Shown piece by piece: positions 11,402 through 64,000 of a stretch of DNA of 64,000 nucleotides. The stretch comes from an uncultured Gammaproteobacteria bacterium. GTDB taxonomy: Bacteria > Patescibacteriota > Patescibacteriia > Magasanikbacterales > GWA2-37-8. Where the stretch lies: positions 9,671 through 73,670 of the forward strand of contig CAYXJO010000004.1 in NCBI GenBank assembly GCA_964465205.1, read 5' to 3'. The stretch's first letter is position 1. Each line of letters opens with the position of its first letter. A program made the position numbers and the translations under genes. The notes beneath the pieces were generated by a model that was not told the origin of the DNA, did no database searches, and saw only the letters and a list, made by a program, of their open reading frames with translations.

Positions 11402-11421
11402 TCTCAACGACTTCTCAACCC

Positions 11422-17069: not shown

Positions 17070-17078
17070 TCCTCAACG

Positions 17079-17140
17079 CCCCCTAGGGGGCACAACCGGC
17101 TCGGGGGGGGGAGAAATCTCCCCCCGGCCAAATATTTTTC
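17079..17140 (+). terminator. GC-rich palindromes and terminator at the end of the island
   Basis: Perfect palindrome CCCCCTAGGGGG, followed by hairpin GGGGGGGGAGAAATCTCCCCCC and a T-run. Confidence 0.5.
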
Positions 17141-17267
17141 TATCAATCAAATGCTTGAATACAAAAATTATTCAAACATCCGATTGGCAGATTAATTTCC
17201 GCCAAAACAAAAATTCCACCTTTTTCTCTCTCTAGGTGGATTTTTGTTTTCAAAAACAAATAAAAAA

Positions 17268-30126: not shown

Positions 30127-30226
30127 AAATTATCTGTAAATATTATAGCAGATTATGTGCACAAAGTCAAAATAAAAAAGGGCGGTGGTCCGCCCGTGAA
30201 ATGAACTATGGGGCGAGCTGCTTAGC

Positions 30227-30520
30227 TCACCTGTTTTTGTGGTTTTTTGTCACGATCATCCACCCTTCTACGATGGCTGCGACCGGCCAAAACACCCAAC
30301 ACAACAAGAGCATGGTCGAAGCCAGAGCTTGGCTGACTTCTTGCATCTTTTCGATCTCCATATCGGTGTATTGATCATTTTTGAGGCGCTGGACATGTTC
30401 CGGGTTGAATGGAGTTGCGAGTAATTTGATAGTGGATTTCATGTGGAGTAGCATGCTGTAATACAGCACGATACCCGCTAAAATATAGATACTGATAAAG
30501 AGCCATGTGGGCCATTCCAT
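30227..30520 (-). CDS. Small 2-TM membrane protein (97 aa) in a GC-richer islet
   Basis: GGAGG RBS. Hydrophobic helices WLFISIYILAGIVLYY and LLLCWVFWPVAAIVEGWMIV. Own terminator hairpin GGGCGGTGGTCCGCCC at 30183-30203 with a T-run on the minus strand. Confidence 0.55.
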   Translation of the reverse strand: MEWPTWLFISIYILAGIVLYYSMLLHMKSTIKLLATPFNPEHVQRLKNDQYTDMEIEKMQEVSQALASTMLLLCWVFWPVAAIVEGWMIVTKNHKNR

Positions 30521-30661
30521 CTCTTATACCTCCGGTTAAGTGGTTGGGATCACGCCTATGCAATAGGCAGAGGCGTGTGTATTTTAATGATTTTCTTGCC
30601 TTTGTCAAGTTGAAATGTTATAATCTCAAAAGATGTTATAAATCTCTGTTTTCTTGTCTGT

Positions 30662-39812: not shown

Positions 39813-39845
39813 GACGGCCCCGAGAGGGGCCGTTGGTGTTTATAG
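39813..39845 (+). terminator. Intrinsic terminator after tkt
   Basis: Hairpin ACGGCCCC-GAGA-GGGGCCGT followed by a T-rich tail. Confidence 0.5.
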
Positions 39846-39860: not shown

Positions 39861-40214
39861 TTATTTGGGGCGTAGGTTGGAAAACCCGCACTTTTCCAGA
39901 TCGAATGGATAGACGAAGCATTCGACCAGGGCGAGTGGAAAGTATTTTGTAATAACTTGCACAATGCTGTGTGCAAGGTCCTGCTGAACTTGGTAGGTGC
40001 GTTCAGGTGTTGCGAATAGCCCAACCACTTCCACAATGACCTCCTCGCCAAGACCGTGCGTCATTAGGTCGCTGGGAAAAAACACGGTGACGCTGTTAGA
40101 TGCGACTTTAAGCGCTTTCGCAGACGCCACGACATGTCGAATTTCATTACAGAGATACTCAAGTGTATCTTGTGGTGTGTTGGTTGGCACGCCCCACACT
40201 TTGATGATCGGCAT
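39861..40214 (-). CDS. Tautomerase-superfamily-like protein (N-terminal Pro-1: MPIIKV...), 117 aa, in a GC-rich islet
   Basis: Begins M-P-I-I-K-V-W-G as in 4-OT/MIF family enzymes. Has an AGGAAACGAAT RBS region. GC is about 50% in contrast to the neighbouring genes. Confidence 0.4.
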   Translation of the reverse strand: MPIIKVWGVPTNTPQDTLEYLCNEIRHVVASAKALKVASNSVTVFFPSDLMTHGLGEEVIVEVVGLFATPERTYQVQQDLAHSIVQVITKYFPLALVECFVYPFDLEKCGFSNLRPK

Positions 40215-40345
40215 ATTCGTTTCCTTTCCCGCCTACTGGGCGGAGTTGCTGTTAGCCTTGATCACGTACGGTTTATCACCCAATAACTCAGTGAAAAGCC
40301 CCATTTCCTCGTCCACGATTCCATGGTAATTTTCCGGTCCGTCCA

Positions 40346-40510
40346 GCTAGAGAAGATCGATTTTTTGACCGTCATACTCGGTTGTTACCGCCGTCAGGCC
40401 CTCCTCGTGATCGTAAACTCTTTCGGAGGTCACCGTCCACGGTTCGTCGCAGTCGTCGATCAGTTGGTCTCCTTTTTTTAGTTGCATGAAATCTTCGCGC
40501 GTGATCATCT
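40346..40510 (-). CDS. Unannotated small acidic protein (54 aa) with a strong GGAGG RBS, upstream of and co-oriented with the tautomerase-like gene
   Basis: Translation MITREDFMQLKKGDQLIDDCDEPWTVTSERVYDHEEGLTAVTTEYDGQKIDLL. RBS GGGAGGTAAAAG-ATG. GC-rich codons. Confidence 0.4.
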
Positions 40511-40555
40511 TTTACCTCCCGGCCTTCTGGCCTGTTTGGGTTTTTAACACCAGTA

Positions 40556-40636
40556 AAAAGAGCCAAAGAACAATTTACATTAGCATAAATTCGCCCATTT
40601 GTCAACCCCCAAAAAATCCTGTAAAATACCTCTGTT
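40556..40636 (+). promoter_or_regulatory. Consensus sigma70 promoter cassette A (upstream block, -35 TTGTCA 40599-40604, 17-nt spacer, extended -10 TGTAAAAT 40620-40627), driving the P-type ATPase
   Basis: Near-identical about 80-bp blocks occur at 43830-43912 and 47290-47365. Confidence 0.6.
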
Positions 40637-40659
40637 TTTCAAACTATATTTTTTGTGTT

Positions 40660-43152
40660 ATGCCAACAATCACTGATCTCAAAATTTCGCAAATCGCGAA
40701 CTATGTCGGCCTCAATAGTGCCGACGCGCAACTGGCTCAGAAACAATATGGTCTCAACCTACGCCCTGTGGCCAAACGCAAGACGTGGCTTCATCGTCTT
40801 TGGGACATCTTCACGGAGCCGATGATGTTTTTGATTCTTGCGACTGGAGTTTTGTATTTCTTTTTTCACGATTGGGTAGAAGCGGTGATAATTTTGGCAT
40901 CAATTATCCCTATTGGCCTCATTGAATTTATCCAAGAGGGGCGTACTGATAAAGCGATTGAAGTACTCGATAAGTTCATGGTGCAGTATGTGCTAGTCTA
41001 TCGTGATGGCAAACTGCAAAAAATGGAAAGTAAATATCTCGTGCCGGGGGATGTGGTGCATTTGACCGCAGGTGACAAAATTCCGGCCGATGGCGTGCTT
41101 ATTAATTCTCCGGGGCTCACGGTAGATGAGTCGATTTTGACTGGGGAATCCGTCACTGTGGTCAAAGCGCAGCTGGTGAATCACGATGAAATTAAAGACG
41201 AAAATATTTTGTATCAAGGTACCATGATCGCACAGGGCGAGGGTCAACAATTGGTTCTGGATACCGGCGTGAATACCAAATATGGCAAGTTGGGCGCCTT
41301 ACTTGAAAGTATCGAGGGCCAAAAAACCCCATTGCAGAAAAAAATTCATAAATTGGTAAATGGTGTAGCAGTGGTCGCGTTTATTACAGCTGTTCTTACT
41401 ACAGTGCTTGTGGGTTGGTCGCGAGGTGTGATGGAGGGTGTGTTAGCTGGGCTCACGATGGCTATGTCGCTTATCCCCGAAGAATTTCCAGTGGTATTTT
41501 CCGTGTTTCTCATTTTGGGTGTATTGCGTCTAGCCAAAGAAAAAGCACTGACACGGAAAATGGTTATGGTTGAGACTTTGGGGAGTGCTACGGTCATTTG
41601 TACGGATAAAACCGGCACCTTGACCGAGGGGAGCATGTCTTTAGAGCAGATATATTTTAGCGGAAAAATTTTTGATGTAAAAAAAACTACAATAATTAAA
41701 AATGAATTTTCCGATTTGATTACCGCGTCACTACTCGCTTTGGAACGAGTTGCGGTGGATCCAATCGAGGTCGAAATGCAAGATTTTGCCCGTGTTCAAG
41801 GATTAAATCCGGAGGAATTTTATTCGGGTTATACTCTCAAACACGATGCGCCCTTTGATGCCAAAACGAAAATGGTGCATCATATTTGGCAAAATAATGA
41901 TACGAAAAAATGCGCGCAATACAGCGTGGGCGCGCCCGAATCGGTGTTCGGGTGTTGTGAATTTATCGGAAATGGTCGGGCTGAGGTTTTAGCCATAAAC
42001 GACAAACTAGCAGGTGATGGTTATCGTGTAATTGCGGTAGCGCAAAAAGAAACCGATTGCAGTGATCGAGTAGAATTATCCGGCTTGCGTTTCGTGGGGC
42101 TACTCGTGATGCGCGATCCGGTGCGCGCGGGAGTAAAAGATGCGATTCGCGTGTGCCAAGAAGCGGGGATACGGGTAGTGATGATTACTGGTGATAACAA
42201 GCTTACCGCACATAATGTCGCCGAGAGTTTGGGCATGAAACATAATGAAGAAATGATTAGCGGTGATGAATTTGCCGAATTAACCACTGAAGGAATTTTA
42301 AAAATTGTAAAATCACATGATATTTTCGCACGTATCCGTCCGGAACAGAAATTTATGATTGTGGAAGCACTCCAAAAACAGGGTGAGGTAGTAGCGATGA
42401 CTGGTGATGGGGTCAACGATGCGCCAGCGCTGAAAAAAGCGGATATTGGCATTGCGATGGGTAGTCGCGGTACCGAGGTGGCACGCGCCGCTGCGGGCAT
42501 GGTACTACTTGATGATAATTTTTCTACGATTGTGGACGCGGTCAAGGAAGGTCGTCGAATTTATGATAATATGCGCAAGGCGTTTATGTTTTTGTTTTCA
42601 TTTCATTTGCCGATTATCGGTCTCGCGGTGGTGCCGCTGTTATTTAATCAGCCAATGATTTTTATGCCTATCCATATAATTTTTTTGGAATTGATTTGTG
42701 ATCCGGCGTCGGTACTCGGTTTTGAGCGTGACCATGCGCGCCTTGGGTTGCTTCAAGAACCGCCTAGGCCGGTGAGTGAACCACTTATAAATCCGAAATT
42801 ATGGTGGCAGATTATCGTGCAGGGTGTGGCGATTCTTGCGGTATCACTCGGATTTTATTATTACGGCGTGCGATTGGGTGGTGCAGAGCTCGGCCGTACG
42901 CTCGCGTTTTCCGCGCTCGTGGTATCACAGGTGGCGCTTATACTCCTCACGCGTGAGTGGGTGCAGGTGAAAAGTAATTTCTTATTGTTGTTTATAGCCG
43001 TAGCCACATTGGTCGCTTTGGTGGCACTTCTTACTGTACCGTTCGCGCGCGGGATTTTTCATTTTGCGCCGATCAGTTGGGCGCTCGTGGATAGCGTTAT
43101 TCTGATTCCGTTTGCGGTGATGGGGGCGGTGAGTTTGGTGGTGAGGAAATAA
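40660..43152 (+). CDS. P-type cation-transporting ATPase (E1-E2; Ca2+/Mg2+-type)
   Basis: DKTGTLTEG phosphorylation motif. MTGDGVNDAPALKKADIGIAMG hinge motif. PEEFP in TM4. TGES actuator motif. The start was reset to the ATG at 40660 downstream of the promoter cassette. Confidence 0.85.
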   Translation: MPTITDLKISQIANYVGLNSADAQLAQKQYGLNLRPVAKRKTWLHRLWDIFTEPMMFLILATGVLYFFFHDWVEAVIILASIIPIGLIEFIQEGRTDKAIEVLDKFMVQYVLVYRDGKLQKMESKYLVPGDVVHLTAGDKIPADGVLINSPGLTVDESILTGESVTVVKAQLVNHDEIKDENILYQGTMIAQGEGQQLVLDTGVNTKYGKLGALLESIEGQKTPLQKKIHKLVNGVAVVAFITAVLTTVLVGWSRGVMEGVLAGLTMAMSLIPEEFPVVFSVFLILGVLRLAKEKALTRKMVMVETLGSATVICTDKTGTLTEGSMSLEQIYFSGKIFDVKKTTIIKNEFSDLITASLLALERVAVDPIEVEMQDFARVQGLNPEEFYSGYTLKHDAPFDAKTKMVHHIWQNNDTKKCAQYSVGAPESVFGCCEFIGNGRAEVLAINDKLAGDGYRVIAVAQKETDCSDRVELSGLRFVGLLVMRDPVRAGVKDAIRVCQEAGIRVVMITGDNKLTAHNVAESLGMKHNEEMISGDEFAELTTEGILKIVKSHDIFARIRPEQKFMIVEALQKQGEVVAMTGDGVNDAPALKKADIGIAMGSRGTEVARAAAGMVLLDDNFSTIVDAVKEGRRIYDNMRKAFMFLFSFHLPIIGLAVVPLLFNQPMIFMPIHIIFLELICDPASVLGFERDHARLGLLQEPPRPVSEPLINPKLWWQIIVQGVAILAVSLGFYYYGVRLGGAELGRTLAFSALVVSQVALILLTREWVQVKSNFLLLFIAVATLVALVALLTVPFARGIFHFAPISWALVDSVILIPFAVMGAVSLVVRK

Positions 43153-43155
43153 CAA

Positions 43156-43200
43156 AAATATACTGTGCGCTGAAAGTATATTTTGTTATTTATCATTTTA
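43156..43200 (+). terminator. AT-rich hairpin terminator after the ATPase gene
   Basis: AAAATATACT...AGTATATTTT 10-bp stem followed by a T-rich tail. Confidence 0.4.
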
Positions 43201-43213
43201 TGAATAAAAAAAA

Positions 43214-43235
43214 GAGCAGGGGAAGGCCCCTGCTC
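43214..43235 (-). terminator. Intrinsic terminator of the minus-strand Cys-rich gene
   Basis: 9-bp stem GAGCAGGGG/CCCCTGCTC. The T-run on the minus strand appears as the A-run at 43205-43213 on the plus strand. Confidence 0.55.
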
Positions 43236-43252
43236 GCGGTGAGTGATAGTGT

Positions 43253-43765
43253 TTATTGTGGGCGTGCCACTTTGTGCATATACACACCGGATACGGATTG
43301 CTTTACTTCGTACCAATCTTTGGCGAGGCGTTCCTCGCAGGTGCATCGGTACGGTCCGCATCGATTCGATTTGGCAGCCACCTCAAACCGGTTGCAACAC
43401 CACGCGTCGTTCGGCGTGATGGTGCATTGAATATCGCCGAAGACAAATTCATACAGTTCATCGTTCATTCCGCCGCGGTTCATTTCAAAATCCCCACGTC
43501 GGTGACGCCACTGGCCAGTCATTTCGCAGTTCTCTGCCGAAACTCCGCCGACACAGCCGACAAAATTGACGGTCAGACTTCCGTCCAGATCCATGAGGAT
43601 GGCGAGGGTGGAACCAGATGTGGGTTTTGAGACTTCGACTTCGGTTGGTTCATCAAACGGTTTGGGTCCGTCGAGTAAATTGTTGATCGTGAATGCGATC
43701 ATCAACACGACACACAATCCCAAACCCAAACCTAAGTATGCCTTTTTCCAGAAATTTTTATCCAC
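43253..43765 (-). CDS. Membrane-anchored secreted Cys-rich protein (170 aa) in a GC-rich islet
   Basis: GTG start with a GAGGAGGG RBS. TM/signal anchor LGLGLCVVLMIAFTI. 10 Cys in the ectodomain, including a CC pair. Confidence 0.55.
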   Translation of the reverse strand: MDKNFWKKAYLGLGLGLCVVLMIAFTINNLLDGPKPFDEPTEVEVSKPTSGSTLAILMDLDGSLTVNFVGCVGGVSAENCEMTGQWRHRRGDFEMNRGGMNDELYEFVFGDIQCTITPNDAWCCNRFEVAAKSNRCGPYRCTCEERLAKDWYEVKQSVSGVYMHKVARPQ

Positions 43766-43829
43766 TTGTCCCTCCTCGGCCTCCCGGCCTGTTATTGGTT
43801 AGGCTCTGTTTTGTTGTTTTCACCTCATG

Positions 43830-43912
43830 AAAAGAGCACAAAGAACAATTTACAATAGCACAAATCCGCCCATTTGTCAATACCCCCGAAAAGGTGTAAA
43901 ATATACCTGTTT
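43830..43912 (+). promoter_or_regulatory. Consensus sigma70 promoter cassette B (-35 TTGTCA 43874-43879, extended -10 TGTAAAAT 43895-43902), driving gpsA
   Basis: Same block as cassette A, with a 17-nt spacer. Confidence 0.6.
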
Positions 43913-43935
43913 TTAGTATCTAAACGTATAAAAAT

Positions 43936-44940
43936 ATGCCAAGAAAAATCTCGGTGGCCGTGCTCGGCGCCGGTAATATGGGTACCGCACTCGCTTCTGT
44001 AATCGGCAAAAATGGCCACAAAGTAAATATTTGGAATCATGAGGGCGACCCGGAGCCACTCGCACAAATAAACGAGACGCACGAAAATAAAAAGTATCTA
44101 GCTGGTATTGCATTGTCTCCAAATATTCACGCTGAATCTAGCTTGGAACAAGCAGTCCAAGGCGCGCAGGTGATTGTTTTTTGTGTCCCTAGCAATTTTA
44201 TGGCCGCGCTTGTGGAGCGAACAGTACAGTATTTACCTTGTGGAGTTGTGTGCGTGGACGCGTCCAAAGGTCTCGACGAAAAATCTTTGTTCCTCGTGCC
44301 GGATATTATCGCCGATAAAATTCCCGAATGTATCGGCAAAAGTGTGGCGAGTATTTCTGGACCAGCCATCGCACGCGACATGGCTGAAGGGAAATTCACC
44401 GCCATGAATGTGGCAAGCAAAGACACGAAAGCGATCAAAATTGTCCGCAAAATTTTTGAAAATGAAAATCTCAAATTAGTGCCGACCAAAGACGTGATTG
44501 GGGTAGAACTCGCCGGTTCGTTTAAAAATGTGTATGCTATAGCGATGGGAATTTGCGACGGCCTCGAATACCCCATGAACACCAAAGCGGCGCTACTCGT
44601 GATGGCGCTCAAAGAAGTCGGAGTGCTCATCAAAAAAATGGGTGGAAAAGCACACACAGTATATGATCTTGCCGGTCTTGGCGATCTCGCCGCTACTGGA
44701 CTCTGCGCCATTTCGCGCAATCGCCGTTTCGGAGAATTTTTAGCCAAAGGGATTGGTCGTGACGAAGCAATCAAACAGGTGGGGCAGGTGGTGGAGGGTG
44801 CGGGTGCTAGCAAAGTCCTCAAAACCCTCGCCGAAAAACATAATGTCAAAATGCCATTCGCGGATTTTGTGTATGAAGTTGTTTGGGAAGATAAAAACGC
44901 GAGCGAGATGATAAAAAAACTTTTGGCCGATTATGCGTAG
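43936..44940 (+). CDS. gpsA: NAD(P)H-dependent glycerol-3-phosphate dehydrogenase
   Basis: Rossmann motif KISVAVLGAGNMGTALA and the GpsA C-terminal domain. 334 aa. Confidence 0.85.
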   Translation: MPRKISVAVLGAGNMGTALASVIGKNGHKVNIWNHEGDPEPLAQINETHENKKYLAGIALSPNIHAESSLEQAVQGAQVIVFCVPSNFMAALVERTVQYLPCGVVCVDASKGLDEKSLFLVPDIIADKIPECIGKSVASISGPAIARDMAEGKFTAMNVASKDTKAIKIVRKIFENENLKLVPTKDVIGVELAGSFKNVYAIAMGICDGLEYPMNTKAALLVMALKEVGVLIKKMGGKAHTVYDLAGLGDLAATGLCAISRNRRFGEFLAKGIGRDEAIKQVGQVVEGAGASKVLKTLAEKHNVKMPFADFVYEVVWEDKNASEMIKKLLADYA

Positions 44941-46651
44941 TATCGAAGACAAAGAAATACGTTGGTTGTCGATAGTCTTTTTATTTATTTCGATTATCAT
45001 TATCGTGCGTCTTTTTATTTTACAAGTAAAAGAGCATGCCTACTACGAAGCGTTTGCTACGGGAACACACGAAATTTATCAGCAACTTTATCCGGTACGA
45101 GGCGCCATCTATTTTCAAGATACACGTACCCACGATGAATTTCCGGTGGCGGTAAATAAAGATTTTTATTTGATTTATGCCGTGCCCAAAGAAATTAAAT
45201 CATCCGATATAGTATCTACCACCGATAAATTGGCCGCTATTTTGGGTGTTGATGATAATATTAAAAAAGAAATATTTGAAAAATTGAGCAAACCAAATGA
45301 CGTATATGAACCAATAGCCAAGAAACAGCCAGAAAGCGTGGTGGCGGCTATAAAAGATCAAAAACTTGGTGGTATTTATGCTACCACTCAAGTCTATCGT
45401 TATTATCCGGAATTAGAATTGGCTGGAAATATTTTGGGTTTTACCGGTTTTGATGATAATGGCGGTTTGATAGGTAGTTATGGTATCGAAGGTTATTGGA
45501 ACAAGATTTTGGCCGGTCGGGGTGGGTTTATGGCCGGTGAACGTGGTGCCAAGGGTGGTTGGATTGCTTTGGCTGGTCGCAGTCTTACCCCGGCAGAAGA
45601 TGGTGCGGATTTGGTTTTGACTATTGATCGAGCGATAGAAAATAAAGCCTGCGAACGATTAAAAGCCGGCATGGAAGAATTCAAAGCTAAAAGTGCGGCC
45701 TTAACCATGATTGATCCCAAAACCGGAGCTATCGTAGCAATGTGCAGTTATCCGAATTTTGATCCTAATAATTATTCCAAAGTAGAGGACGAAAAATCTT
45801 TTAATAATACGAATATTTTTACTCCGTATGAACCGGGTTCAGTATTCAAATCAATTACCATGTCGATGGCTTTGGATTTGGGGCTCGTTAATCAAGACAC
45901 TACCTTTATCGACCCATGTCAGCGTAAAATTGCTGGCTATACTATCAAAAATGCGCTGGATAAATGTTATGGCACTGCTACTATGACCAATGTTTTGGAA
46001 AATTCGATAAATACTGGCATGATTTGGGTAGAAGAAAAAATCGGGCAAGAGAGATTCCGTGATTATATAAATAAATTTGGTTTTGGAGAAAAACTCGGCG
46101 TGACTATGAATACTGAAGCTAGAGGTAATATTGAACAGCTTGCTAGAAAAAGACCGATTGATTATGCCACTGCTTCGTTTGGGCAAGGTATTACCGTCAC
46201 TCCGCTGCAATTGGCTATGGCCTATAGCGCCCTCGCCAATGGTGGCCGTATGTATAAACCTTATGTGGTTTCCGAAATCCGTTATCCCAATGGCAAAAAA
46301 GAGAAAACTGAACCGGAATTGGTAGACAACATTGTTTCCGAACGCACCAGCAAAATTATTACCGGCATGCTTACCTCGGTAGTGGAGAACACTTATAAAA
46401 ATAGCGTAAAAATGAAAGATTATTATATTGCCGGCAAAACTGGTACGGCGCAAATTCCTGGGCCGGGTGGATATACCGACGAAACCAATCACACTTTTTG
46501 TGGATATTTTCCGGCACAAAATCCCAGGTGGGTGATGGTAGTGAAATATGAAGCCCCAGAACGCCAATGGGCCGAGAGTACGGCGGCGGTAGTTTTCAAA
46601 GATGTGGCGGATTTTGTGTTGGATTATTACGCGGTAGCTAAAGAGAGATAA
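44933..46651 (+). CDS. Class-B penicillin-binding protein (PBP2/FtsI-like transpeptidase)
   Basis: N-terminal membrane anchor. SxxK (GSVFKS), SxN (ENSINT) and KTG (GKTGTAQ) motifs. Confidence 0.85.
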   Translation: MRSIEDKEIRWLSIVFLFISIIIIVRLFILQVKEHAYYEAFATGTHEIYQQLYPVRGAIYFQDTRTHDEFPVAVNKDFYLIYAVPKEIKSSDIVSTTDKLAAILGVDDNIKKEIFEKLSKPNDVYEPIAKKQPESVVAAIKDQKLGGIYATTQVYRYYPELELAGNILGFTGFDDNGGLIGSYGIEGYWNKILAGRGGFMAGERGAKGGWIALAGRSLTPAEDGADLVLTIDRAIENKACERLKAGMEEFKAKSAALTMIDPKTGAIVAMCSYPNFDPNNYSKVEDEKSFNNTNIFTPYEPGSVFKSITMSMALDLGLVNQDTTFIDPCQRKIAGYTIKNALDKCYGTATMTNVLENSINTGMIWVEEKIGQERFRDYINKFGFGEKLGVTMNTEARGNIEQLARKRPIDYATASFGQGITVTPLQLAMAYSALANGGRMYKPYVVSEIRYPNGKKEKTEPELVDNIVSERTSKIITGMLTSVVENTYKNSVKMKDYYIAGKTGTAQIPGPGGYTDETNHTFCGYFPAQNPRWVMVVKYEAPERQWAESTAAVVFKDVADFVLDYYAVAKER

Positions 46652-46656
46652 AAAAA

Positions 46657-46674
46657 GAGCGGGGGAACCCGCTC
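46657..46674 (-). terminator. Hairpin terminator for the minus-strand small membrane genes (partly bidirectional)
   Basis: GAGCGGG-GGAA-CCCGCTC, with an A-run at 46651-46656 on the plus strand. Confidence 0.5.
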
Positions 46675-46697
46675 AAAATCGGTTGCGTTGTCCGTGG

Positions 46698-47000
46698 TTA
46701 ACCGCCAATGATCCATGCGCCGATGCTGACGCCGAAAATCATTGCGATACCAACGAAGACCAGTGGCAGCATCGCTGGCATATCATTTAACCAGCCCCGA
46801 TATTCCGTGTTTTGTTTGATGTGGCCGAACAGGCCTACCCATGCGGTAATTGCACCTGTAACCACACCGATCCCCGCCGAAAAGTTCGTTGGGAGTCCGG
46901 AGTATATGACGAAGCATGCTATTGTAACCGCTCCTACCACACCGATTGTGATCCATGACCACAGCGGCTTCTGGTCAATCATTTTAAACAGGTAGTTCAT
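46698..47000 (-). CDS. Small 3-TM membrane protein (100 aa), GC-rich islet
   Basis: Hydrophobic helices. Codons GC-richer than the flanks. Confidence 0.5.
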   Translation of the reverse strand: MNYLFKMIDQKPLWSWITIGVVGAVTIACFVIYSGLPTNFSAGIGVVTGAITAWVGLFGHIKQNTEYRGWLNDMPAMLPLVFVGIAMIFGVSIGAWIIGG

Positions 47001-47003
47001 GTT

Positions 47004-47246
47004 TCACTCCTTTCTGTCCTCGGCGATGCCGAGGTGTTTCATAATCTTTTTCTGGTTGGTGAGAATCTGATCCACCCACATGAAGATACATGCCGTAGCC
47101 AGAATGGCTACGAAGCCGATGTAGTGGAGCGTCGCCAGAATCTCTGGCGAAGTTACGTCGGCCTTAGGAAGGAGCGTCTTGAACACGCCGGTGATCAAAA
47201 TCCAAACCGCCGCGCCGAAGAAACCAATCCTTAATGACGTTGCCAT
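47004..47246 (-). CDS. Small 2-TM membrane protein (80 aa), GC-rich islet
   Basis: Hydrophobic helices. A 3-nt gap separates it from the downstream small gene. Confidence 0.5.
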   Translation of the reverse strand: MATSLRIGFFGAAVWILITGVFKTLLPKADVTSPEILATLHYIGFVAILATACIFMWVDQILTNQKKIMKHLGIAEDRKE

Positions 47247-47289
47247 GTCTTCCTCCTGCCCCGTGCATTTATTGTTTAAGGTGCTCTAG

Positions 47290-47365
47290 CTCACGCTAGC
47301 CAATTACAATAGCACAAAATCACCCACTTGTCAAGACCCTCCAATTAACGTAAAATATAGGCATA
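47290..47365 (+). promoter_or_regulatory. Consensus sigma70 promoter cassette C (-35 TTGTCA 47328-47333, -10 TAAAAT 47351-47356), driving murF
   Basis: Shares CAATTACAATAGCACAAAAT...TTGTCAA-N17-TAAAAT with cassettes A and B. Confidence 0.55.
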
Positions 47366-48681: not shown

Positions 48682-48685
48682 AGCT

Positions 48686-48724
48686 TATAAAAAAAGCGCG
48701 GTCAAACCGCGCGTCGAGTTTTTT
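48686..48724. terminator. Bidirectional intrinsic terminator
   Basis: GCGCGGT-CAAA-ACCGCGC flanked by an A-run and a T-run. Confidence 0.6.
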
Positions 48725-48998
48725 ATCCACACTTAATATCGCTGTATGCAATGAATGTTATCGCTGCTCCAAACGCTATACCGATAGCTATAGCTACCAG
48801 GTATTTTTCTGAGGAGTATCTGTGTCGTGCGCGTGTTTTTTCGTTAAAGTATAATATTCCTACGGTTATTATACCAAGGAATATCAACATCATGCAAAAT
48901 ATTTCCGAAGCAACGAATGCCTCCATGAAATACTTCGCACCAATTCCGGCTATTGTTGCCGACGCCACAGGTCCAATCGTGTTAATTATTTTTTTCAT
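48723..48998 (-). CDS. Small membrane protein (91 aa)
   Basis: Three hydrophobic helices. Confidence 0.4.
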   Translation of the reverse strand: MKKIINTIGPVASATIAGIGAKYFMEAFVASEIFCMMLIFLGIITVGILYFNEKTRARHRYSSEKYLVAIAIGIAFGAAITFIAYSDIKCG

Positions 48999-49152
48999 TA
49001 TAACCTTCCGTTTTCTTATTTGGTAGTAACATGTTTAGATTATGTCATGGAAATTTTTAAAAGTGCCTTAATCAAAGTAGCACCAAATCGACAGCCTGTC
49101 AATATTTTAGATCAAAAAATCTCATACATCATTTACAGCCTACCTTTTAATT

Positions 49153-49653
49153 ATGATCTTACTTGTATATTCTATCATCGGCGTAATTTTTGCCATTGTC
49201 CTTATTTCTACCATTATTGGCATCCCGTGCCTACCTACCCACCGTAAACAGGCGCGCAAGATGATCGAGCTCGCGGAAATAAAACCGGGCGACAAAGTGA
49301 TTGATTTAGGTGCCGGGCATGGCCGACTTTTATTTTTGGCCGCGCAAAAGGGCGCTCACGCCGTCGGATACGAACTCAACCCAGTTTTGGTTGCGTGGAT
49401 TTGGATAAAATCGCAGATTATCAAAACGCCTGGCATGGTAGAAATAAAAATGCGTTCATTATTTACTGCCGATGTACGCTCGGCAGATACAGTATTTTGT
49501 TTTTTATTTCCGGGGTATATGGACAAGTTGGAAGAAAAATTATTTTCCCAAATGAAGCCGGGTACGAAGATTGTTGCGTATGTTTTCCCTTTTCCTAACA
49601 AAAAATATACTCACAAAGAAGAAGGGTGTTTTGTGTATAAAATTTATAAATAA
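49153..49653 (+). CDS. Class I SAM-dependent methyltransferase with an N-terminal TM helix
   Basis: Motif I VIDLGAGHGRL. Acidic motif II region. Confidence 0.65.
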   Translation: MILLVYSIIGVIFAIVLISTIIGIPCLPTHRKQARKMIELAEIKPGDKVIDLGAGHGRLLFLAAQKGAHAVGYELNPVLVAWIWIKSQIIKTPGMVEIKMRSLFTADVRSADTVFCFLFPGYMDKLEEKLFSQMKPGTKIVAYVFPFPNKKYTHKEEGCFVYKIYK

Positions 49654-49703
49654 AAAACCGGAGGCGACGCACGCCTCCGGGAGCGGAAACTTCTATGGTG
49701 GGT

Positions 49704-49871
49704 TCAGGCCACGATACCCAATCGCCGGTACTCGGCGACCAGTGCATCGGTTTCTTCCCGCCCCTTGCCGCGCACTTTGCACTCTACGCGAATATTATAC
49801 TCGCTCTGGTAAAAATACGCCGTCCGGGCGTATCCATACCAGTGGAAGAGTGCTACAACCACGCCAATCAT
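49704..49871 (-). CDS. Possible unannotated small membrane protein (55 aa) in a GC-rich patch, followed by a strong hairpin
   Basis: Translation MIGVVVALFHWYGYARTAYFYQSEYNIRVECKVRGKGREETDALVAEYRRLGIVA. Hairpin CCGGAGGCG-ACGCA-CGCCTCCGG at 49658-49680, with a T-run on the minus strand. No clear RBS. Confidence 0.3.
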   Translation of the reverse strand: MIGVVVALFHWYGYARTAYFYQSEYNIRVECKVRGKGREETDALVAEYRRLGIVA

Positions 49872-49960
49872 AATCAAAAAACAGAAATTCGTGAGTTTTT
49901 GTTTAATGATAAATAAAAAAACGGCAAGCTTAGAGCTGCCGCTATATTTTTATAATTATA

Positions 49961-50359
49961 TTACCAGATTGACTTTTGGATCAATTTATCACCATGCTTG
50001 GTCAAAACTTCTGTTATGTTTTTACTCCCGTAATCCATTATTTTCAATTGCCCATCGGCAAGAGTAAAATTACTGGGATTGACCATGTGGTGGTGATCTA
50101 TCAATATGTCATTTCCAAGTAAACTACTCATTATTTTGGCAAATTGTTTTATTTCTGTACGATACGGTTTGCCGTATTTCTGGATGTTAATTAGTCCAAA
50201 GGCGGATATGATGGTGGGTTGTAGGAATGGGTGTTTTGTTTTGCGAAATAATTTGTATTCTCGCCAATTGTTAATAATCCCGGCAAATAATTTACCACGT
50301 ATGGTCGTGGGATTATCTGCCGAAAAAGACAACTTATATTTGAGTAAAATTATCCCCAA
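49961..50359 (-). CDS. Hypothetical protein (132 aa). Weak resemblance to a kinase-like C-lobe (LIDHHHMVNPSNF...IMDYG).
   Basis: ORF with host codon usage. The motif resemblance is weak. Confidence 0.35.
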   Translation of the reverse strand: MGIILLKYKLSFSADNPTTIRGKLFAGIINNWREYKLFRKTKHPFLQPTIISAFGLINIQKYGKPYRTEIKQFAKIMSSLLGNDILIDHHHMVNPSNFTLADGQLKIMDYGSKNITEVLTKHGDKLIQKSIW

Positions 50360-50539
50360 ATGTAAGTTCTTTTTTTATAGCGAAACACTACTTGCCATAC
50401 ACTGCACAATGCTTGTATACAGTGAATTTTTGGGATTTTTATTACGATCCCAAACAATGGCAAGGCCACCACTATTCTAGTACTGCCTTGGTATATTTCC
50501 ATGATTCCCCCTTTGATTTAAAAGTGCGTTTCAAAATTG

Positions 50540-50611
50540 TAGCTCGTAGGGGAATCGAACCCCTATTTCCGCCGTGAGAGGGCAGCGTCCTAGCCGTTAG
50601 ACGAACGAGCC
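50540..50611 (-). tRNA. tRNA-Glu (anticodon CUC), CCA not encoded
   Basis: Manual fold: acceptor GGCTCGT/ACGAGCT (G1-U72), D-arm GTCT-AACGGCTA-GGAC, anticodon arm CTGCC-CTCTCAC-GGCGG with U33 and A37, T-arm AGGGG-TTCGATT-CCCCT, discriminator A. Confidence 0.75.
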
Positions 50612-59157: not shown

Positions 59158-59186
59158 CTTGACAAAGTCAGTGTTTTGTGTTACAA
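59158..59186 (+). promoter_or_regulatory. Perfect-consensus sigma70 promoter TTGACA-N17-TACAAT for the GC-rich lipoprotein gene
   Basis: TTGACA at 59158-59163 and TACAAT at 59181-59186. Confidence 0.55.
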
Positions 59187-59280
59187 TGTCATGTCTTGTT
59201 CTTTGCTAACTGACTGAGTTATGCCGTGCCATGGTGGTTCGGTATCGAATAATAACAACAAACGAGAAACGAGGTTTTAG

Positions 59281-59781
59281 ATGAGAAAAGCTCTGTGTCT
59301 TTTGATAGGGATGGTTATTCTGGGCACCATCGGTTGCGCTGCCAGCACCAACGAACCGTCTTACGCGGAAAAAGTCTTGGGGGGCACCCACGAACTGCGA
59401 AAGATGGTGGAACGGCAGGGTAGTCAGACCACTACTTCCAGCAGCTTCTTCTTGGTCGTAGGCAGTATGACCCAGACTCAAACTGCCGAAACCCTGATCA
59501 AATTCTCCTGGAAGATGAATGACGGCACCTACGCTATTTCATCTCTGCCTCTGGAGAAAATTCGCGTTCGGATCGACGAAACCGCAACGTCGCCTACCGC
59601 TCAGTTTCGCTGGCGGCCGTGGCGCGGCGGTTGCCTGTGCCGCACTGCGATCCCAGAACTTCAGACGCTAATGGACAACAACGTTGTTTACATGCTTCTG
59701 AACGTGAGATCGGCCGATTGGCCGGTACAGGTCAGCCTTCCGCTCAACGAAAACAAGGCGGAATTCATCCCGTCAAAGTAA
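59281..59781 (+). CDS. Lipoprotein (166 aa) in a GC-rich islet
   Basis: Lipobox LGTIGC in MRKALCLLIGMVILGTIGCAAS. RBS GAGG. GC is about 55%. Confidence 0.6.
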   Translation: MRKALCLLIGMVILGTIGCAASTNEPSYAEKVLGGTHELRKMVERQGSQTTTSSSFFLVVGSMTQTQTAETLIKFSWKMNDGTYAISSLPLEKIRVRIDETATSPTAQFRWRPWRGGCLCRTAIPELQTLMDNNVVYMLLNVRSADWPVQVSLPLNENKAEFIPSK

Positions 59782-59823
59782 AGTGTGGCGAAAAATTCAA
59801 AGGACTGAGCAGGCCGACTGCTT

Positions 59824-59847
59824 CCGCCAGCAATGGCGGTTTTTTTA
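59824..59847 (+). terminator. Intrinsic terminator after the lipoprotein gene
   Basis: CCGCC-AGCAAT-GGCGG followed by TTTTTTT. Confidence 0.65.
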
Positions 59848-59921
59848 TTGACCAACAGTGTAATTTGTGCTAGGGTTATTTCAAAGACAGATCTTTTTAC
59901 AATCTTGCCAGGAGGTCGAGA

Positions 59922-60530
59922 ATGGATATAAAAGCGATTTTAGCGATGATGCGCGTGGTTATGGACCTCAAGAAAGTTAAACGTGCGGGCTGGAACCGTA
60001 AGGCCCAGAAAGGTGGCACCTCTAAGACGAGGAAAGTTAAGGACCTTGAAAGCGTGGCCGACCATACGTACAGCACTGTCATGTTGGCGATGTGGTTGTT
60101 GCCCCAACTGGGTTACGTAATGGCGGAAAATCAGCTCAAAATTATCAAGATGCTGCTTATCCATGATTTGCCAGAAAGTCTGTTGGGAAAAGATCAGATT
60201 GTTTACGACAAAGACGATCGCATCAATTTGACTTTATCCCAGCAAAAGAAACTAATGGAACGAAAAGCCTTGCGTCAATTCTTGATAGCGGTCAAAGCAC
60301 CTGCGGAATACTGGGATTTGTACGTTGAGTTTGACGACAATAAAAGTCGGATGGCTCAACTCGCGCATCAACTCGACAAACTCGATGCGGTACTCCAGGC
60401 TCACCATTACGCCAAGATGCGCGAACAATCTCGGCCGGAAGAATTTTTGGCCGCAGCCAAACTCGTGATCACCGATCCGGTGTTGGTTGAGTTGTTGGAC
60501 AAAATTCCTGGGTTCTACAGCGAGCTTTAA
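59922..60530 (+). CDS. HD-domain phosphohydrolase (YfbR-like 5'-deoxynucleotidase family)
   Basis: Strong AGGAGG RBS. HD motif region VADHTYSTVMLAMWL...IHDLPESLLGD. Confidence 0.65.
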   Translation: MDIKAILAMMRVVMDLKKVKRAGWNRKAQKGGTSKTRKVKDLESVADHTYSTVMLAMWLLPQLGYVMAENQLKIIKMLLIHDLPESLLGKDQIVYDKDDRINLTLSQQKKLMERKALRQFLIAVKAPAEYWDLYVEFDDNKSRMAQLAHQLDKLDAVLQAHHYAKMREQSRPEEFLAAAKLVITDPVLVELLDKIPGFYSEL

Positions 60531-60549
60531 GGATTGGCACACTAACCAC

Positions 60550-60580
60550 GGCGCTCTTCGGAGCGCCTGTTTTATTTTGA
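60550..60580 (+). terminator. Intrinsic terminator after the HD gene
   Basis: GGCGCTC-TTCG-GAGCGCC followed by TGTTTTATTTT. Confidence 0.65.
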
Positions 60581-60590
60581 ATTTATTGAC

Positions 60591-60623
60591 AAAAAAACAA
60601 CCCCACTTTGGAGTTGTTTTTTT
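60591..60623. terminator. Bidirectional terminator (serves minus-strand clpB)
   Basis: Hairpin CAACCCCA-CTT-TGGAGTTG flanked by an A7 run and a T7 run. Confidence 0.6.
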
Positions 60624-60629
60624 ATGTTA

Positions 60630-63400: not shown

Positions 63401-64000
63401 ATGAGTAAAAAAGAAATGGCGGGCTGGGGAGGCCCCTGGATTTTTTTTCGGGAACTTTGTCGAAGTTGGTTTCATCGATCGCCTGGTCTGGTAGGCTTCT
63501 GGCTGCTGATGGTGCTGAAATATACGCCCATTGAACTCACCAAAGTATTCGTGGGCGTGGCCGTACCAGTACTACTGGCCGAATATGTGCGTCTACGGCT
63601 CGATCGTTGGCGAGTGGTGTTGGCAGTGGAGCCGGAAAAAAAGAAAGAGTACTTGAGTGCTCTTGATCAGTTCTTCAACACTGAAGTAAACAAGTTGACA
63701 TTGGGAAAACGTACCTTGGATCTGGTATTGCGCATCGCGCAGTATCTGAACAATGTATGGGGACCAAAGTTCCTCTCTCGGCCAAGCGAACGTTACACCT
63801 ATACCGCCATGAGTAAATCAGTGGCCGGATTTGCCTTTGCATGGTCGCTCACGTGGTATTTGCCGCATTGGATTCCCGGGATGGTGTGCCTGTATTTCGC
63901 TTTTGTAGACACCAGCGCGAAGTGGGGTTTACATTTGCCAATCAAAAAAATTGGTTGGAAAAACACAGGCAACAAATCCTGGGGAGGCCTATTCTTTGGT
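63401..64000 (+). CDS. Partial (3'-truncated) hypothetical membrane-associated protein in a GC-richer segment. Not listed in the ORF track because no stop codon occurs within the window.
   Basis: RBS AGGAGAAAGGGG 9 nt upstream of the ATG. The frame is open to the window end (200 codons). A hydrophobic segment reads GLVGFWLLMVLKY...VFVGVAVPVLLA. GC is about 50%. Confidence 0.4.
   Translation, partial: MSKKEMAGWGGPWIFFRELCRSWFHRSPGLVGFWLLMVLKYTPIELTKVFVGVAVPVLLAEYVRLRLDRWRVVLAVEPEKKKEYLSALDQFFNTEVNKLTLGKRTLDLVLRIAQYLNNVWGPKFLSRPSERYTYTAMSKSVAGFAFAWSLTWYLPHWIPGMVCLYFAFVDTSAKWGLHLPIKKIGWKNTGNKSWGGLFFG

Follow-up and report, generated by a model that had tools for sequence, protein, structure and literature searches.

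Moron-like gene cassettes at housekeeping-gene junctions of a Patescibacterium probably turn over by transfer within the CPR

Phage morons, a concept of Hendrix and Juhala reviewed by Cumby, Davidson and Maxwell in 2012 (PMC3594210), are extra DNA relative to syntenic relatives. A moron comprises one or two small genes under a promoter and terminator of its own, often encodes a membrane protein, and differs in GC content from the neighbouring genes (PMC3594210). We found these features in short islets within a 64,000-nt stretch of a Patescibacteria contig (hereafter the window). Unlike phage morons, the islets lie between core chromosomal genes of a bacterium and not in a phage or prophage. 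Several of them also share one chassis, in which a bidirectional promoter would serve the downstream host gene as well, and the cargo behind this chassis varies between genomes.

Two other systems are comparable. The flexible genomic islets and individually transferred genes of Patescibacteria are likewise small additive or replacement insertions at conserved junctions, with deviating composition, many hypothetical or membrane proteins and transfer mostly within the phylum (PMC12455944). In contrast to these, the units in the window measure 0.4-1.4 kb, far under the usual island-detection size, and their repeated promoter, leader and terminator architecture and Shine-Dalgarno (SD) dependence in an SD-poor genome are not described in PMC12455944. 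Integron gene cassettes are also small, mostly single-ORF units of varied, in many cases unknown, function with defined exchange sites, and orphans are common among them. However, neither an integrase nor attC sites were found for the islets, which carry their own promoter and terminator where integron cassettes are mostly promoterless, and which are spread over several junctions instead of forming an array.

The typical islet is a mono- or bicistronic unit. A strong predicted extended -10 promoter is followed by about 60-85 nt of leader and a GGAGG motif, and downstream of the one or two small ORFs lies a GC-rich intrinsic terminator. Most units are antisense to the neighbouring genes. Slots A (between the transketolase and P-type ATPase genes), B (upstream of gpsA) and C (upstream of the Mur ligase gene) contain the following features.

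39814-39833, both strands (terminator scan): slot A terminator hairpin, ACGGCCCCTCTCGGGGCCGT then a T-run
39861-40214, minus strand: I2a, 117 aa, predicted tautomerase superfamily with Pro1, downstream of I2b in the slot A unit; GC3 0.53
40347-40508, minus strand: I2b, 53 aa, a soluble, acidic product, promoter-proximal in the slot A unit; GC3 0.61
40509-40576, minus strand: slot A leader, GCTCTTTT..., a GGCC-N4-GGCC hairpin, then GGAGG
40577-40627, both strands: slot A bidirectional promoter (predicted), overlapping -35 boxes
43214-43235, minus strand: slot B terminator, GAGCAGGGGCCTTCCCCTGCTC then T8
43253-43765, minus strand: I3, 170 aa, N-terminal membrane anchor (one transmembrane segment) and 9-Cys ectodomain; GC3 0.57
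43766-43902, both strands: slot B leader (43766-43851) and bidirectional promoter (predicted; minus face 43880-43852, plus face 43874-43902)
46657-46674, minus strand: slot C terminator, GAGCGGGTTCCCCCGCTC then T7
46698-47000, minus strand: I4b, 100 aa, 3 transmembrane segments; GC3 0.59
47004-47246, minus strand: I4a, 80 aa, 2 transmembrane segments, C-terminal IMKHLGIAEDRKE; GC3 0.69
47247-47356, both strands: slot C leader and bidirectional promoter (predicted; minus face 47334-47306, plus face 47328-47356)

The slot A terminator ends the I2b-I2a unit and also faces the convergent transketolase gene. At the other end of the unit, the minus face of the promoter reads TTGACA-N14-TGCTAATGT (40605-40577), and the plus face, TTGTCA-N17-TAAAAT (40599-40627), points toward the P-type ATPase gene, whose true start is at 40660. 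The plus faces of slots B and C are directed at gpsA and the Mur ligase gene. I2b had no match in protein-family searches, and the I4b hit to SLATT_1 was not significant (19 bits against a cutoff of 41).

The remaining units are as follows.

30180-30624, minus strand: islet 1 unit, with terminator 30195-30180, ORF 30227-30520 (97 aa, 2 transmembrane segments) and promoter 30608-30581; a divergent plus-strand promoter for murB is predicted at 30596-30624
48696-49102, minus strand: slot D unit, in cassette 48682-49152, with promoter 49102-49074, ORF 48723-48998 (91 aa, 2 transmembrane segments) and terminator 48712-48696
49650-49885, minus strand: islet 5, 58% GC stretch, with terminator 49680-49658 and a 55-codon ORF (49704-49871)
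59159-60567, plus strand: islet 6, two monocistronic units in tandem
Plus strand: first unit of islet 6, with promoter 59159-59187, lipoprotein-like ORF 59281-59781 (166 aa) and terminator 59824-59839
Plus strand: second unit of islet 6, with promoter 59848-59876, HD_3 hydrolase 59922-60530 and terminator 60550-60567
63401-64000, plus strand: islet 7, 5' part of a conserved membrane-protein gene

An earlier note on this DNA had listed seven GC-rich patches, all of which (islets 1-7) are present where it placed them, although the set is mixed. Neither an SD nor a promoter was detected in islet 5, which has no Rfam match and no copy in any of the loci compared. Its fold is unusually stable (z-score -4.8; none of 200 shuffles was equally stable), and it may represent a structured RNA or decayed cassette ends. 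Islet 7 was ruled out as a variable cassette by its conserved counterpart, a 275-aa gene adjoining clpB in contig L010 (63-75% amino-acid identity by tblastx). The slot D cassette, which was not among the seven patches, is AT-rich (GC3 0.38). Since it has the same build as the others, the class is defined by architecture and not by GC. Taken together, slot D, islet 5 and islet 7 make the class non-uniform, which counts against a single cassette explanation. The predicted products include transmembrane proteins, a 9-Cys anchored protein, a lipoprotein-like signal, a tautomerase fold and an HD_3 domain, in agreement with the earlier calls. An envelope association holds for about six of ten products but is not general, as I2a, I2b and the HD protein are soluble.

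Composition separated the islets from the backbone less by GC than by codon usage. Backbone GC had been put at about 38% and measured 42.8% (17200-64000), while islets 1-7 measured 45.6, 49.5, 50.5, 50.6, 57.9, 49.4 and 48.8%. They are thus above the backbone, but the contrast with patches of about 48-58% had been overstated. In 400-nt windows the islets barely exceed parts of the transketolase gene, itself up to 0.49-0.50 GC, and raw GC alone is therefore a weak signal. The sharp contrast is limited to third codon positions. GC3 was 0.607 +/- 0.045 (minimum 0.534) for nine islet ORFs and 0.422 +/- 0.036 (maximum 0.484) for 31 backbone genes, without overlap (Mann-Whitney p = 3.4e-6), and only 3.4% of size-matched backbone chunks reached GC3 >= 0.53. 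Islet codon usage is shifted chiefly to NNC codons (e.g. ATC, TTC, AAC, TAC, GAC), and its RSCU correlates at 0.74 with the 7.7-kb island and at 0.29 with the backbone. Translation initiation showed the same dichotomy. Anti-SD pairing energies are -6.2 to -12.3 kcal/mol for eight of the nine islet ORFs (I4b, -8.2; I2b, through GGGAGG, -11.6; I3, -12.3), whereas nearly all of the roughly 30 housekeeping genes pair more weakly than -4 kcal/mol and essentially none has a strong SD. The impression that GGAGG is rare elsewhere was thus correct, and the view of the islets as a distinct compositional class rather than random fluctuation is well founded.

The regulatory parts are alike between slots. 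The pattern TTGAC-N15-TGnTAnnnT occurs 11 times in the window (0.66 expected), and a 31-nt promoter sequence is present in three copies (0 expected). Alignment A1 spans nine slot/genome combinations over some 170 nt of promoter plus leader, and its invariant columns are the -35 box common to both faces and the -10 box of the plus strand. The downstream ORFs are unalignable, and similarity returns at the terminators. The slot A leader is kept in slot B and in contigs L001 and L002, although alifold backs only its GGCC hairpin. Hairpins resembling the slot A terminator and nearly identical to the slot B terminator were found in the same slots of L001, and homologues of the slot C terminator in slot C of L002 and L003. 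The hairpin terminators noticed earlier were recovered by the terminator scan as intrinsic terminators; promoter and terminator activity is predicted from these motifs. Promoter, leader and terminator are native to the lineage and common to several slots.

Between these conserved modules, the contents of the slots change. The gene order Tkt-ATPase-GpsA-PBP2-MurLig is kept in related metagenome contigs. In L004, L005, L007 and L008 (GpsA identity 64-66%), Tkt...GpsA-PBP2-MurLig is packed with spacers of 4-34 nt, while in closer relatives the same junctions are empty, reduced to a deletion stub or filled with unrelated ORFs. L003 has empty slots A and B (16 and 35 nt), and the islet 1 junction is empty in L003/L018, at just 99 nt. 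Slot B is occupied by I3 in the window and by two transmembrane ORFs in L001. In L002 it is reduced to an 80-nt stub made up of the plus face and a remnant of the minus face, as if the cassette had been cleanly deleted. In slot C, the window has the I4a-I4b pair and L003 an ORF resembling I4a, whereas the 158-aa ORF found there in L002 is unrelated. The slot D junction, between the Mur ligase and methyltransferase genes, is 92 nt long in L002, against about 12 nt in L003. At islet 6, Logan contig L009 corresponds exactly to 59162-60635 of the window, and the same slot in L010 contains an HD homologue of 47% identity, compared with 88% for ClpB. The I4a family occupies slot C in the window and in L003 but slot B in L001 (32-33% identity). 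Since one and the same cassette was present in four samples of the L003-type population, no within-species turnover was seen. These occupancies support the repeated small-scale acquisition proposed earlier, in a comparison of three close relatives and one more distant group that does not rigorously polarise gain and loss for every slot. No recombinase, transposase or target-site duplication that would point to an insertion mechanism was found, which weighs against the cassette reading.

I2a matches no Pfam or NCBIfam model, but its AF2 model (pLDDT 92.9) is closest in the PDB to fused 4-OT, cis-CaaD and MIF (TM 0.70), and we regard it as a tautomerase-fold protein on the basis of this model. 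Like members of the tautomerase superfamily (4-oxalocrotonate tautomerase/cis-CaaD/MIF), it has two beta-alpha-beta units, about 117 aa and an invariant N-terminal proline; unlike them it lies outside the Pfam/NCBIfam models, and solved members share only 10-20% sequence identity with it. By HMMER, 634 cluster representatives match the family, with Pro2 invariant, and the family was found in Patescibacteria genomes only. Identity of I2a to copies from Saccharibacteria and Parcubacteria is 40-44%. Its counterpart in the orthologous L002 slot reaches only 22%, although L002 and the window share 70-87% identity in the backbone. Each distant copy is again a monocistronic promoter-GGAGG-ORF-terminator unit, with GC above that of AT-rich hosts. 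Cargo GC3 stays at 0.43-0.67 regardless of whether the host backbone is at 0.25 or 0.60. In five hosts that are AT-rich or of moderate GC it is higher than the backbone, and in Saccharibacteria L014 it falls below the host. The higher-GC donor suggested in the earlier note is not supported by this pattern, by the restriction of the tautomerase-like family to Patescibacteria and by I3, an orphan with only a self-match among 5.8e9 proteins searched. A CPR-internal gene pool or GC-biased gene conversion fits better than a single GC-rich donor. We consider it probable that the islets are moron-like chromosomal cassettes turned over by transfer within the CPR, to which the low HD identity beside a well-conserved ClpB in L010 and the mosaic of L001 and L002 (described below) also point.

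The islets could instead be native, vertically inherited, highly expressed small genes that diverge rapidly and are occasionally lost, without transfer. Selection for high expression would likewise yield strong promoters, SD sites and codons ending in C, and the islets have near-consensus promoters, strong SD sites and a shift chiefly toward NNC. Moreover, their regulatory chassis is conserved and lineage-specific, an HD gene occupies the same slot in L010, I4a-like genes recur in three genomes, and in some slots small membrane proteins that diverge fast could give the impression of replacement (I4a family, about 33% identity). Nevertheless, GC3 is not raised in genes for which high expression is expected (ribosome hibernation factor 0.38, ClpB 0.37), and in L015 the L27 and L9 genes have a GC3 of 0.26-0.28 against 0.43 for the I2a-like gene. 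Clearly non-homologous proteins in the slots, empty outgroup junctions, the low cargo GC3 of L014 and the fact that I2a resembles distant CPR copies more than the L002 gene at the same position also argue against vertical descent, which we consider unlikely.

GC-biased gene conversion at recombination-hot-spot junctions would raise GC3 locally in cargo that is not foreign in composition. It is consistent with the higher cargo GC3 in the five AT-rich or moderate-GC hosts and with the L001/L002 mosaic beside slot B, where gpsA-PBP2 is 94% identical in nucleotides and the ATPase gene interior 65-79%. The slot A and B modules within the window are also more alike (0.88) than orthologous modules (0.72-0.84). 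However, the slot D cassette shows no GC enrichment, L014 cargo lies under the host GC3, and the 7.7-kb island, which is not a small socket, has the same codon usage. Because conversion accounts for composition only and not for the SD dichotomy or the non-homologous cargo, we find this explanation improbable.

Prophage remnants or phage morons left in the chromosome are a very unlikely source. Extra DNA relative to syntenic relatives, deviating GC and an own promoter and terminator are as in morons (PMC3594210), and one 87-kb IMG/VR contig contains a single copy of the islet promoter, spacer included (about 0.02 expected by our own estimate). Yet the window has no phage structural, integrase or replication genes and no significant PHROGs match except a generic HD match, the cassettes match no phage or plasmid DNA, and the flanking genes are core (e.g. 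murB, PBP2 and gpsA). That the islets are structured non-coding RNA genes with spurious ORFs, as GC-rich islands in AT-rich genomes are, is hardly credible: islet 5 (z = -4.8, no SD, own terminator) and the I4a and slot D ORF regions (z = -3.2 and -3.8) do fold better than shuffles, but the sole Rfam match is a tRNA, the SD is correctly spaced in eight of nine ORFs, protein families and folds could be assigned to I2a and the HD protein, conservation of the I4a family in three genomes is at the protein level and extends to its C-terminal motif, and transmembrane and signal features are coherent.

The host is a Magasanikbacteria-like Patescibacterium. Under transfer of moron-like cassettes, its ancestral housekeeping cluster would have been compact, co-directional and without SD sites. 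Autonomous accessory transcription units ("chromosomal morons"), carrying mostly membrane or secreted proteins, would have inserted into the intergenic junctions of this cluster, in slots A, B and C antisense to the cluster. The cassette terminator would also halt the upstream housekeeping transcript. The -35 boxes of the bidirectional promoter overlap, with TTGACA on one strand and TTGTCA-N17-TAAAAT on the opposite one. Its plus-strand face would restart transcription of the downstream housekeeping gene, and the operon would therefore be split without being silenced, which may explain how such insertions are tolerated. Gain, loss and replacement of cargo would take place over genus-level divergence times. 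The cargo would be drawn from a pool circulating within Patescibacteria that is SD-dependent and has its own codon usage, with a GC3 of about 0.45-0.65, which may be why such units are visible as GC-rich islets only in AT-rich hosts.

The window is an ordinary segment of bacterial chromosome. Pfam scans identified murB, genes for a ribosome hibernation factor, a sulfatase-family protein, transketolase (Tkt) and a P-type ATPase, gpsA, PBP2, two Mur ligases, glycosyltransferases, O-antigen-ligase-like proteins, fmt, def, a D-Ala-D-Ala carboxypeptidase, clpB and a DUF5663 protein, together with very large proteins without known domains. The nearest named relatives of its GpsA, at about 63% identity, are Candidatus Magasanikbacteria and "Patescibacteria group" MAGs, while a GpsA search of GTDB gave no match. 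The GC-richer islets lying among these backbone genes are a real and coherent feature.

The earlier note had put the backbone at about 38% GC. We measured 42.8% over 17.2-64 kb, so the raw contrast with the seven patches (45.6-57.9% GC) is smaller than claimed, and in 400-nt windows the islets (0.50-0.53 GC) are equalled by parts of the transketolase gene. Gene by gene, the contrast is sharp. GC3 was 0.607 +/- 0.045 in nine islet ORFs versus 0.422 +/- 0.036 in 31 backbone genes, with disjoint ranges (Mann-Whitney p = 3.4e-6), and size-matched backbone fragments attained a GC3 of 0.53 in only 3.4% of cases. The synonymous codon usage of the islets correlates at 0.29 with the backbone and at 0.74 with the two clear genes of a 7.7-kb GC-rich island (9500-17200), which has this codon usage in common with them. 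The island encodes a 1191-aa lipoprotein-like protein (13494-17069; LIAGC lipobox, Dicty_CTDC repeats, 127 Cys and 149 Asp residues, strong Shine-Dalgarno [SD] sequence) and a 227-aa Gly-rich secreted protein (10718-11401). Two other ORFs of the island, 9646-10602 (78 Arg) and 11532-13271, appear to be read in the wrong frame, and an rRNA operon was dismissed there since an Rfam scan of the whole window gave tRNA-Glu alone.

The earlier note suggested a higher-GC donor; no specific one is implied. Across seven genomes, the cargo ORFs held in such units have a GC3 of 0.43-0.67 whatever the host backbone, which spans 0.25-0.60, and in one Saccharibacteria genome the cargo GC3 is lower than that of the host. 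The islets therefore appear GC-rich because their host is AT-rich.

GGAGG-type ribosome-binding sites had been described as rare outside the islets, and this holds: anti-SD pairing is -6.2 to -12.3 kcal/mol in eight of the nine islet ORFs, and the backbone is nearly SD-free. Almost every backbone gene has an AT-rich upstream region without SD, including gpsA, PBP2 and a Mur ligase gene, whose N-termini are fixed by homologues. The host 16S gene lies outside the window. The anti-SD motif is reportedly absent from about half of Parcubacteria 16S genes (PMC9297842). Essentially all housekeeping genes at 17200-64000 lack an SD (for example, ATAATT-ATG upstream), and this is equally so in relatives L002-L007, L015 and L016.

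Three junctions hold islet genes antisense to the surrounding co-directional housekeeping genes: slot A (Tkt/ATPase), slot B (ATPase/GpsA) and slot C (PBP2/MurLig). The extended -10 promoter TTGAC-N15-TGnTAnnnT occurs 11 times in the window versus 0.66 expected, and a nearly identical 31-nt promoter, TTGACAAATGGGCGRATTTRTGCTAWTGTAA, is found on the minus strand of three units at 40605, 43880 and 47334, with none expected by chance. A plus-strand promoter, TTGTCA-N17-TAAAAT, overlaps the same -35 box and aims at the downstream ATPase gene, gpsA or Mur ligase gene. The longest ORF of the P-type ATPase, from 40486, would overlap both the slot A promoter and the slot A ORF I2b. The true start, as fixed by homologues and an in-frame ATG, is 40660 (MPTITDLKIS...), and the promoter is therefore intergenic.

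Downstream of the minus-strand promoter lies a leader (60-85 nt), which in slots A and B comprises GCTCTTTTC, an A-run, a GGCC-N4-GGCC hairpin and then GGAGG. By sequence, the units do carry their own hairpin terminators, as earlier proposed: a strong hairpin with a T-run stands 3' of every unit, and the one at 39813-39834 scores as a terminator on both strands. When nine slot/genome combinations were aligned, the promoter and leader matched throughout over about 170 nt, the ORFs did not align, and the terminators were similar again (GAGCGGGG..CCCCGCTC-T7). Invariance is confined to the columns of the shared -35 box and of the plus-strand -10 box. The two modules that the window itself has in slots A and B show a similarity of 0.88, versus 0.72-0.84 between each and its own orthologue, which hints at duplication or conversion.

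An upstream CUCUUUU pairs with the SD in five of eight single-sequence leader folds, and the leader may have a regulatory role. A riboswitch or thermometer is unsupported because, in the consensus fold of six leaders, the 4-bp GGCC hairpin alone is retained and shows no compensatory change. The promoter spacer carries an ACAAAT-N6-ATTTGT symmetry, half of which stems from the -35 and extended -10 consensus. We rejected an operator here, as the same spacer drives a tRNA on an unrelated viral-catalogue contig; the element may simply be the strong-promoter consensus of the lineage, and the spacer may be part of a consensus common to the lineage and its phages. That copy, TTGACAAATGGGTGATTTTGTGCTATAAT, lies at 870-894 of L017 (IMGVR_UViG_3300035670_000113, 37% GC), upstream of the tRNA gene and beside an NPPF-type DNA methyltransferase, and is the sole viral-catalogue match to the islet promoter.

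We compared the junctions with those of relatives. One metagenome scan supplied three syntenic contigs, L001-L003 (GpsA identity 84, 83 and 74%), protein look-ups supplied L004-L008 (64-66%), and L010 was fetched for the clpB side. The slots were occupied as follows.

Slot A (Tkt/ATPase): I2b and I2a in the window; one 125-aa membrane ORF in L001; a small membrane ORF and an I2a-like gene, 22% identical to I2a, in L002; empty (16 nt) in L003
Slot B (ATPase/GpsA): the Cys-rich I3 (170 aa) in the window; two small membrane ORFs, the first I4a-like, in L001; 80 nt holding the plus-strand promoter and the minus-strand promoter as far as GGATTTGT in L002; empty (35 nt) in L003
Slot C (PBP2/MurLig): I4a and I4b in the window; an unrelated 158-aa soluble ORF in L002; an I4a-like ORF in L003; the L001 contig stops short of this slot

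Variable presence among relatives, which the earlier note had proposed to look for, is thus evident: slots A-C are empty, remnant or differently loaded. The slot C ORF of L003, a 78-aa membrane protein, is the sole cassette in these L003 junctions, and the one upstream of murB is also empty there (99 nt). Judged from its sequence, the L002 slot B remnant looks like a clean cassette deletion. In the L003-type species the cassette was the same across four samples; turnover is therefore seen between species and not within one. Distant relatives have the order Tkt-(lactamase-B)-aminotransferase-GpsA-PBP2-MurLig with spacers of 4-34 nt and no small reverse genes, which argues that the compact co-directional cluster is the older state. 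The ATPase gene is absent from the more distant L004 and L007.

Over gpsA, PBP2 and the 3' portion of the ATPase gene, the sister genomes L001 (1389-6524) and L002 (7431-12010) share 91-100% nucleotide identity, and over the 5' and middle parts of that gene only 65-79%. This mosaic profile implies that a recombination tract ends inside the ATPase gene.

Among the cargo proteins, the Cys-rich I3 had no relative in a set of 5.8 billion proteins. The HD protein of islet 6 (I6b) matched PF13023 (HD_3) over residues 15-169 with 75.9 bits (gathering cutoff 22.5) and had seven relatives, the best at 51% identity. In L010 an HD gene 47% identical to it occupies the same S11/ClpB slot, next to a ClpB 88% identical, and an extra 180-aa reverse ORF is present that the window lacks. 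I4b (46698-47000; 100 aa, three transmembrane segments) scored 19 bits against SLATT_1, a two-transmembrane effector domain of conflict systems; this is not significant (cutoff 41).

I2a had been called tautomerase-like, and this was correct. Its family comprises 634 cluster representatives and has no Pfam model, I2a itself matched nothing in Pfam or NCBIfam at E <= 0.01, and one cluster member bears the JGI name PptA. All 26 aligned members have Pro2, right behind the initiator Met, which fits the tautomerase Pro1. The AF2 model (pLDDT 92.9) predicts the element order E-H-E-E-H-E with a beta-alpha-beta fold, and the top Foldseek matches in the PDB were fused 4-oxalocrotonate tautomerase (4-OT), cis-CaaD and MIF (E = 1.5e-6, TM 0.70).

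Using a six-sequence alignment as query, we found the I2a family among GTDB species genomes only in Saccharibacteria, Parcubacteria and "Patescibacteria group" MAGs. The window I2a is 40-44% identical to distant CPR copies. In L002, which has backbone proteins 70-87% identical to those of the window, the gene at the orthologous slot shares 22% identity with it. Being nearer to distant copies than to its positional counterpart, I2a by its sequence indicates replacement by transfer and not descent. Every distant copy is a monocistronic unit with TTGACx-N15-TGnTAnnGT, GGAGG or AAGGAG, the ORF and a GC-rich terminator. On the 1.14-Mb Saccharibacteria chromosome OZ246404.1 (L011/L013, 3765-5336), an I2a-like gene is the first of three consecutive single-gene units between SMC and an opposite-strand LTD-domain protein. 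All three have a promoter, an AGGAGG and a terminator of their own, and units two and three encode small Cys-rich zinc-ribbon-like proteins. The cassette style therefore reaches beyond the clade of the window. Single-gene transfers in Patescibacteria are reported to stay mostly within the phylum (PMC12455944), and the islet cassettes fit this picture of gene flow.

The earlier list of islets did not stand as one class in full. Islet 7 is a conserved membrane-protein gene and islet 5 has neither an SD nor an evident promoter. A further unit at slot D, the MurLig/methyltransferase junction, escaped the GC-based reading because it is AT-rich. The features of this region are listed below.

48682-49152, minus strand: slot D cassette, AT-rich and of islet-type build
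49102: promoter of the slot D cassette
48723-48998: its 91-aa two-transmembrane ORF
48712-48696: its terminator
49650-49885, minus strand: islet 5, with two terminator-like hairpins
49961-50359, minus strand: AT-rich ORF (132 aa) that has its own terminator (49943-49920) and a kinase-like stretch, HHMVNPSN...IMDYG
50539-50611: tRNA-Glu, the sole RNA gene detected in the window by Rfam

The slot D cassette is absent from L002 and L003, where the junction measures 92 and about 12 nt. A 91-aa ORF read on the plus strand at 48751-49026 is probably a mirror artefact of this cassette. Islet 5 has a folding energy of -102 kcal/mol versus -79 +/- 4.8 for shuffles (z = -4.8), a thermodynamic signal, and had no Rfam match at E <= 1 and no homologue in any fetched locus. 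It may be a new small structured RNA or the debris of former cassettes or decayed cassette ends. Together with the 132-aa ORF, which had no Pfam match, it forms an insertion of about 0.9 kb relative to L002, where the tRNA directly follows the methyltransferase gene. An independent assembly, the 1474-nt Logan contig L009 (SRR11845629), is identical to window 59162-60635 and covers exactly islet 6, from the first promoter to just beyond the last terminator. That this contig breaks off at both cassette borders could be due to strain variation, flank repeats or mere low coverage.

Phage morons are the closest analogy to the islets, and the published definition (PMC3594210) fits them in all but location. 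The islets are extra DNA relative to syntenic relatives (junctions of 470-850 nt in the window versus 4-35 nt in L003, L004 and L007), their base composition deviates (GC3 0.61 vs 0.42, the slot D unit being the exception), and they have predicted consensus extended -10 promoters and hairpin-and-T-run terminators of their own. The islet promoter with its spacer also occurs once in an 87-kb IMG/VR contig, driving a tRNA. However, the islets are chromosomal, flanked by murB, tkt, gpsA, PBP2, Mur ligase and clpB genes, and share a bidirectional set of promoter, leader and terminator around the cargo (the chassis). Pfam scans found no phage genes in the window, PHROGs, NCBIfam and PADLOC scans gave no significant match, phage and plasmid DNA searches matched only the conserved P-type ATPase core, and a leader-motif scan of viral contigs gave no match.

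Selection for high expression could be the source of the strong promoters, SD sites and C-ending codons, but chaperone, hibernation-factor and ribosomal-protein genes lack the islet codon bias, and in L015 the ribosomal protein genes have no raised GC3. If recombination hot spots favour GC-biased gene conversion, GC3 could rise locally, but this leaves the non-homologous cargo and the SD split unexplained. Integron cassettes were also considered: no integrase or recombinase, IntI included, was found by Pfam scans among nearly all large ORFs of the window, and the cassette 3' ends, where attC sites would lie, are short GC hairpins with T-runs, as typical of intrinsic terminators. Known RNA genes were set aside, as Rfam gave tRNA-Glu only, both across the window at gathering thresholds and within 39.8-50.7 kb at E <= 1. 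So were type I toxin-antitoxin systems: the proteins have 80-100 aa and two to three transmembrane segments, and a plain reading of the units recognised no antisense RNA partner.

An antisense unit inside a co-directional cluster would normally cut off the downstream genes. The inserted unit would bring two compensating elements, a bidirectional terminator and a second promoter face, which is the best-conserved part of the module and would point at the downstream housekeeping gene. Insertion would then be nearly neutral for the cluster, so that junctions could accumulate cassettes. Exchange of cargo by recombination through the conserved chassis is plausible because the slot that the I4a family occupies varies between genomes, the window has similar modules in slots A and B, and the L001/L002 identity is mosaic (94% over gpsA-PBP2, 65-79% inside the ATPase gene).

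An integrase-free "socket" system of the clade, with a copied chassis, swappable cargo and an SD-dependent cargo regime, is a more speculative proposal, and we consider it unlikely as a whole. One regulatory chassis would be copied to new intergenic junctions, made up of a bidirectional promoter whose -35 boxes overlap, a conserved leader (about 80 nt) that ends in a GGCC hairpin and GGAGG, and a bidirectional terminator. It would act as flanking homology through which small-protein cargo is swapped in and out by recombination, and would allow housekeeping operons to be split without silencing. The cargo would form a separate SD-dependent translational regime beside SD-free core genes, and the host could gate accessory-gene expression as a group.

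The interest lies mainly in the split between SD-led and SD-less genes and in the socket-like conserved flanks around changing cargo. The split touches on the open question of translation initiation in Parcubacteria, and the cassettes are a concrete test set for whether and how SD-dependent initiation operates there. As the AT-rich slot D unit was missed by GC, architecture detects such genes better than GC does. The promoter, leader and terminator modules are also candidate parts for CPR genetic tools. Patescibacteria have tiny genomes, and their host interactions are thought to rest on surface and membrane proteins of which little is known. Should small autonomous cassettes be a main route for trying out and exchanging such proteins, many orphan small genes in CPR genomes would be explained, as would the way in which a streamlined, operon-dense chromosome accepts insertions without loss of essential downstream gene expression.
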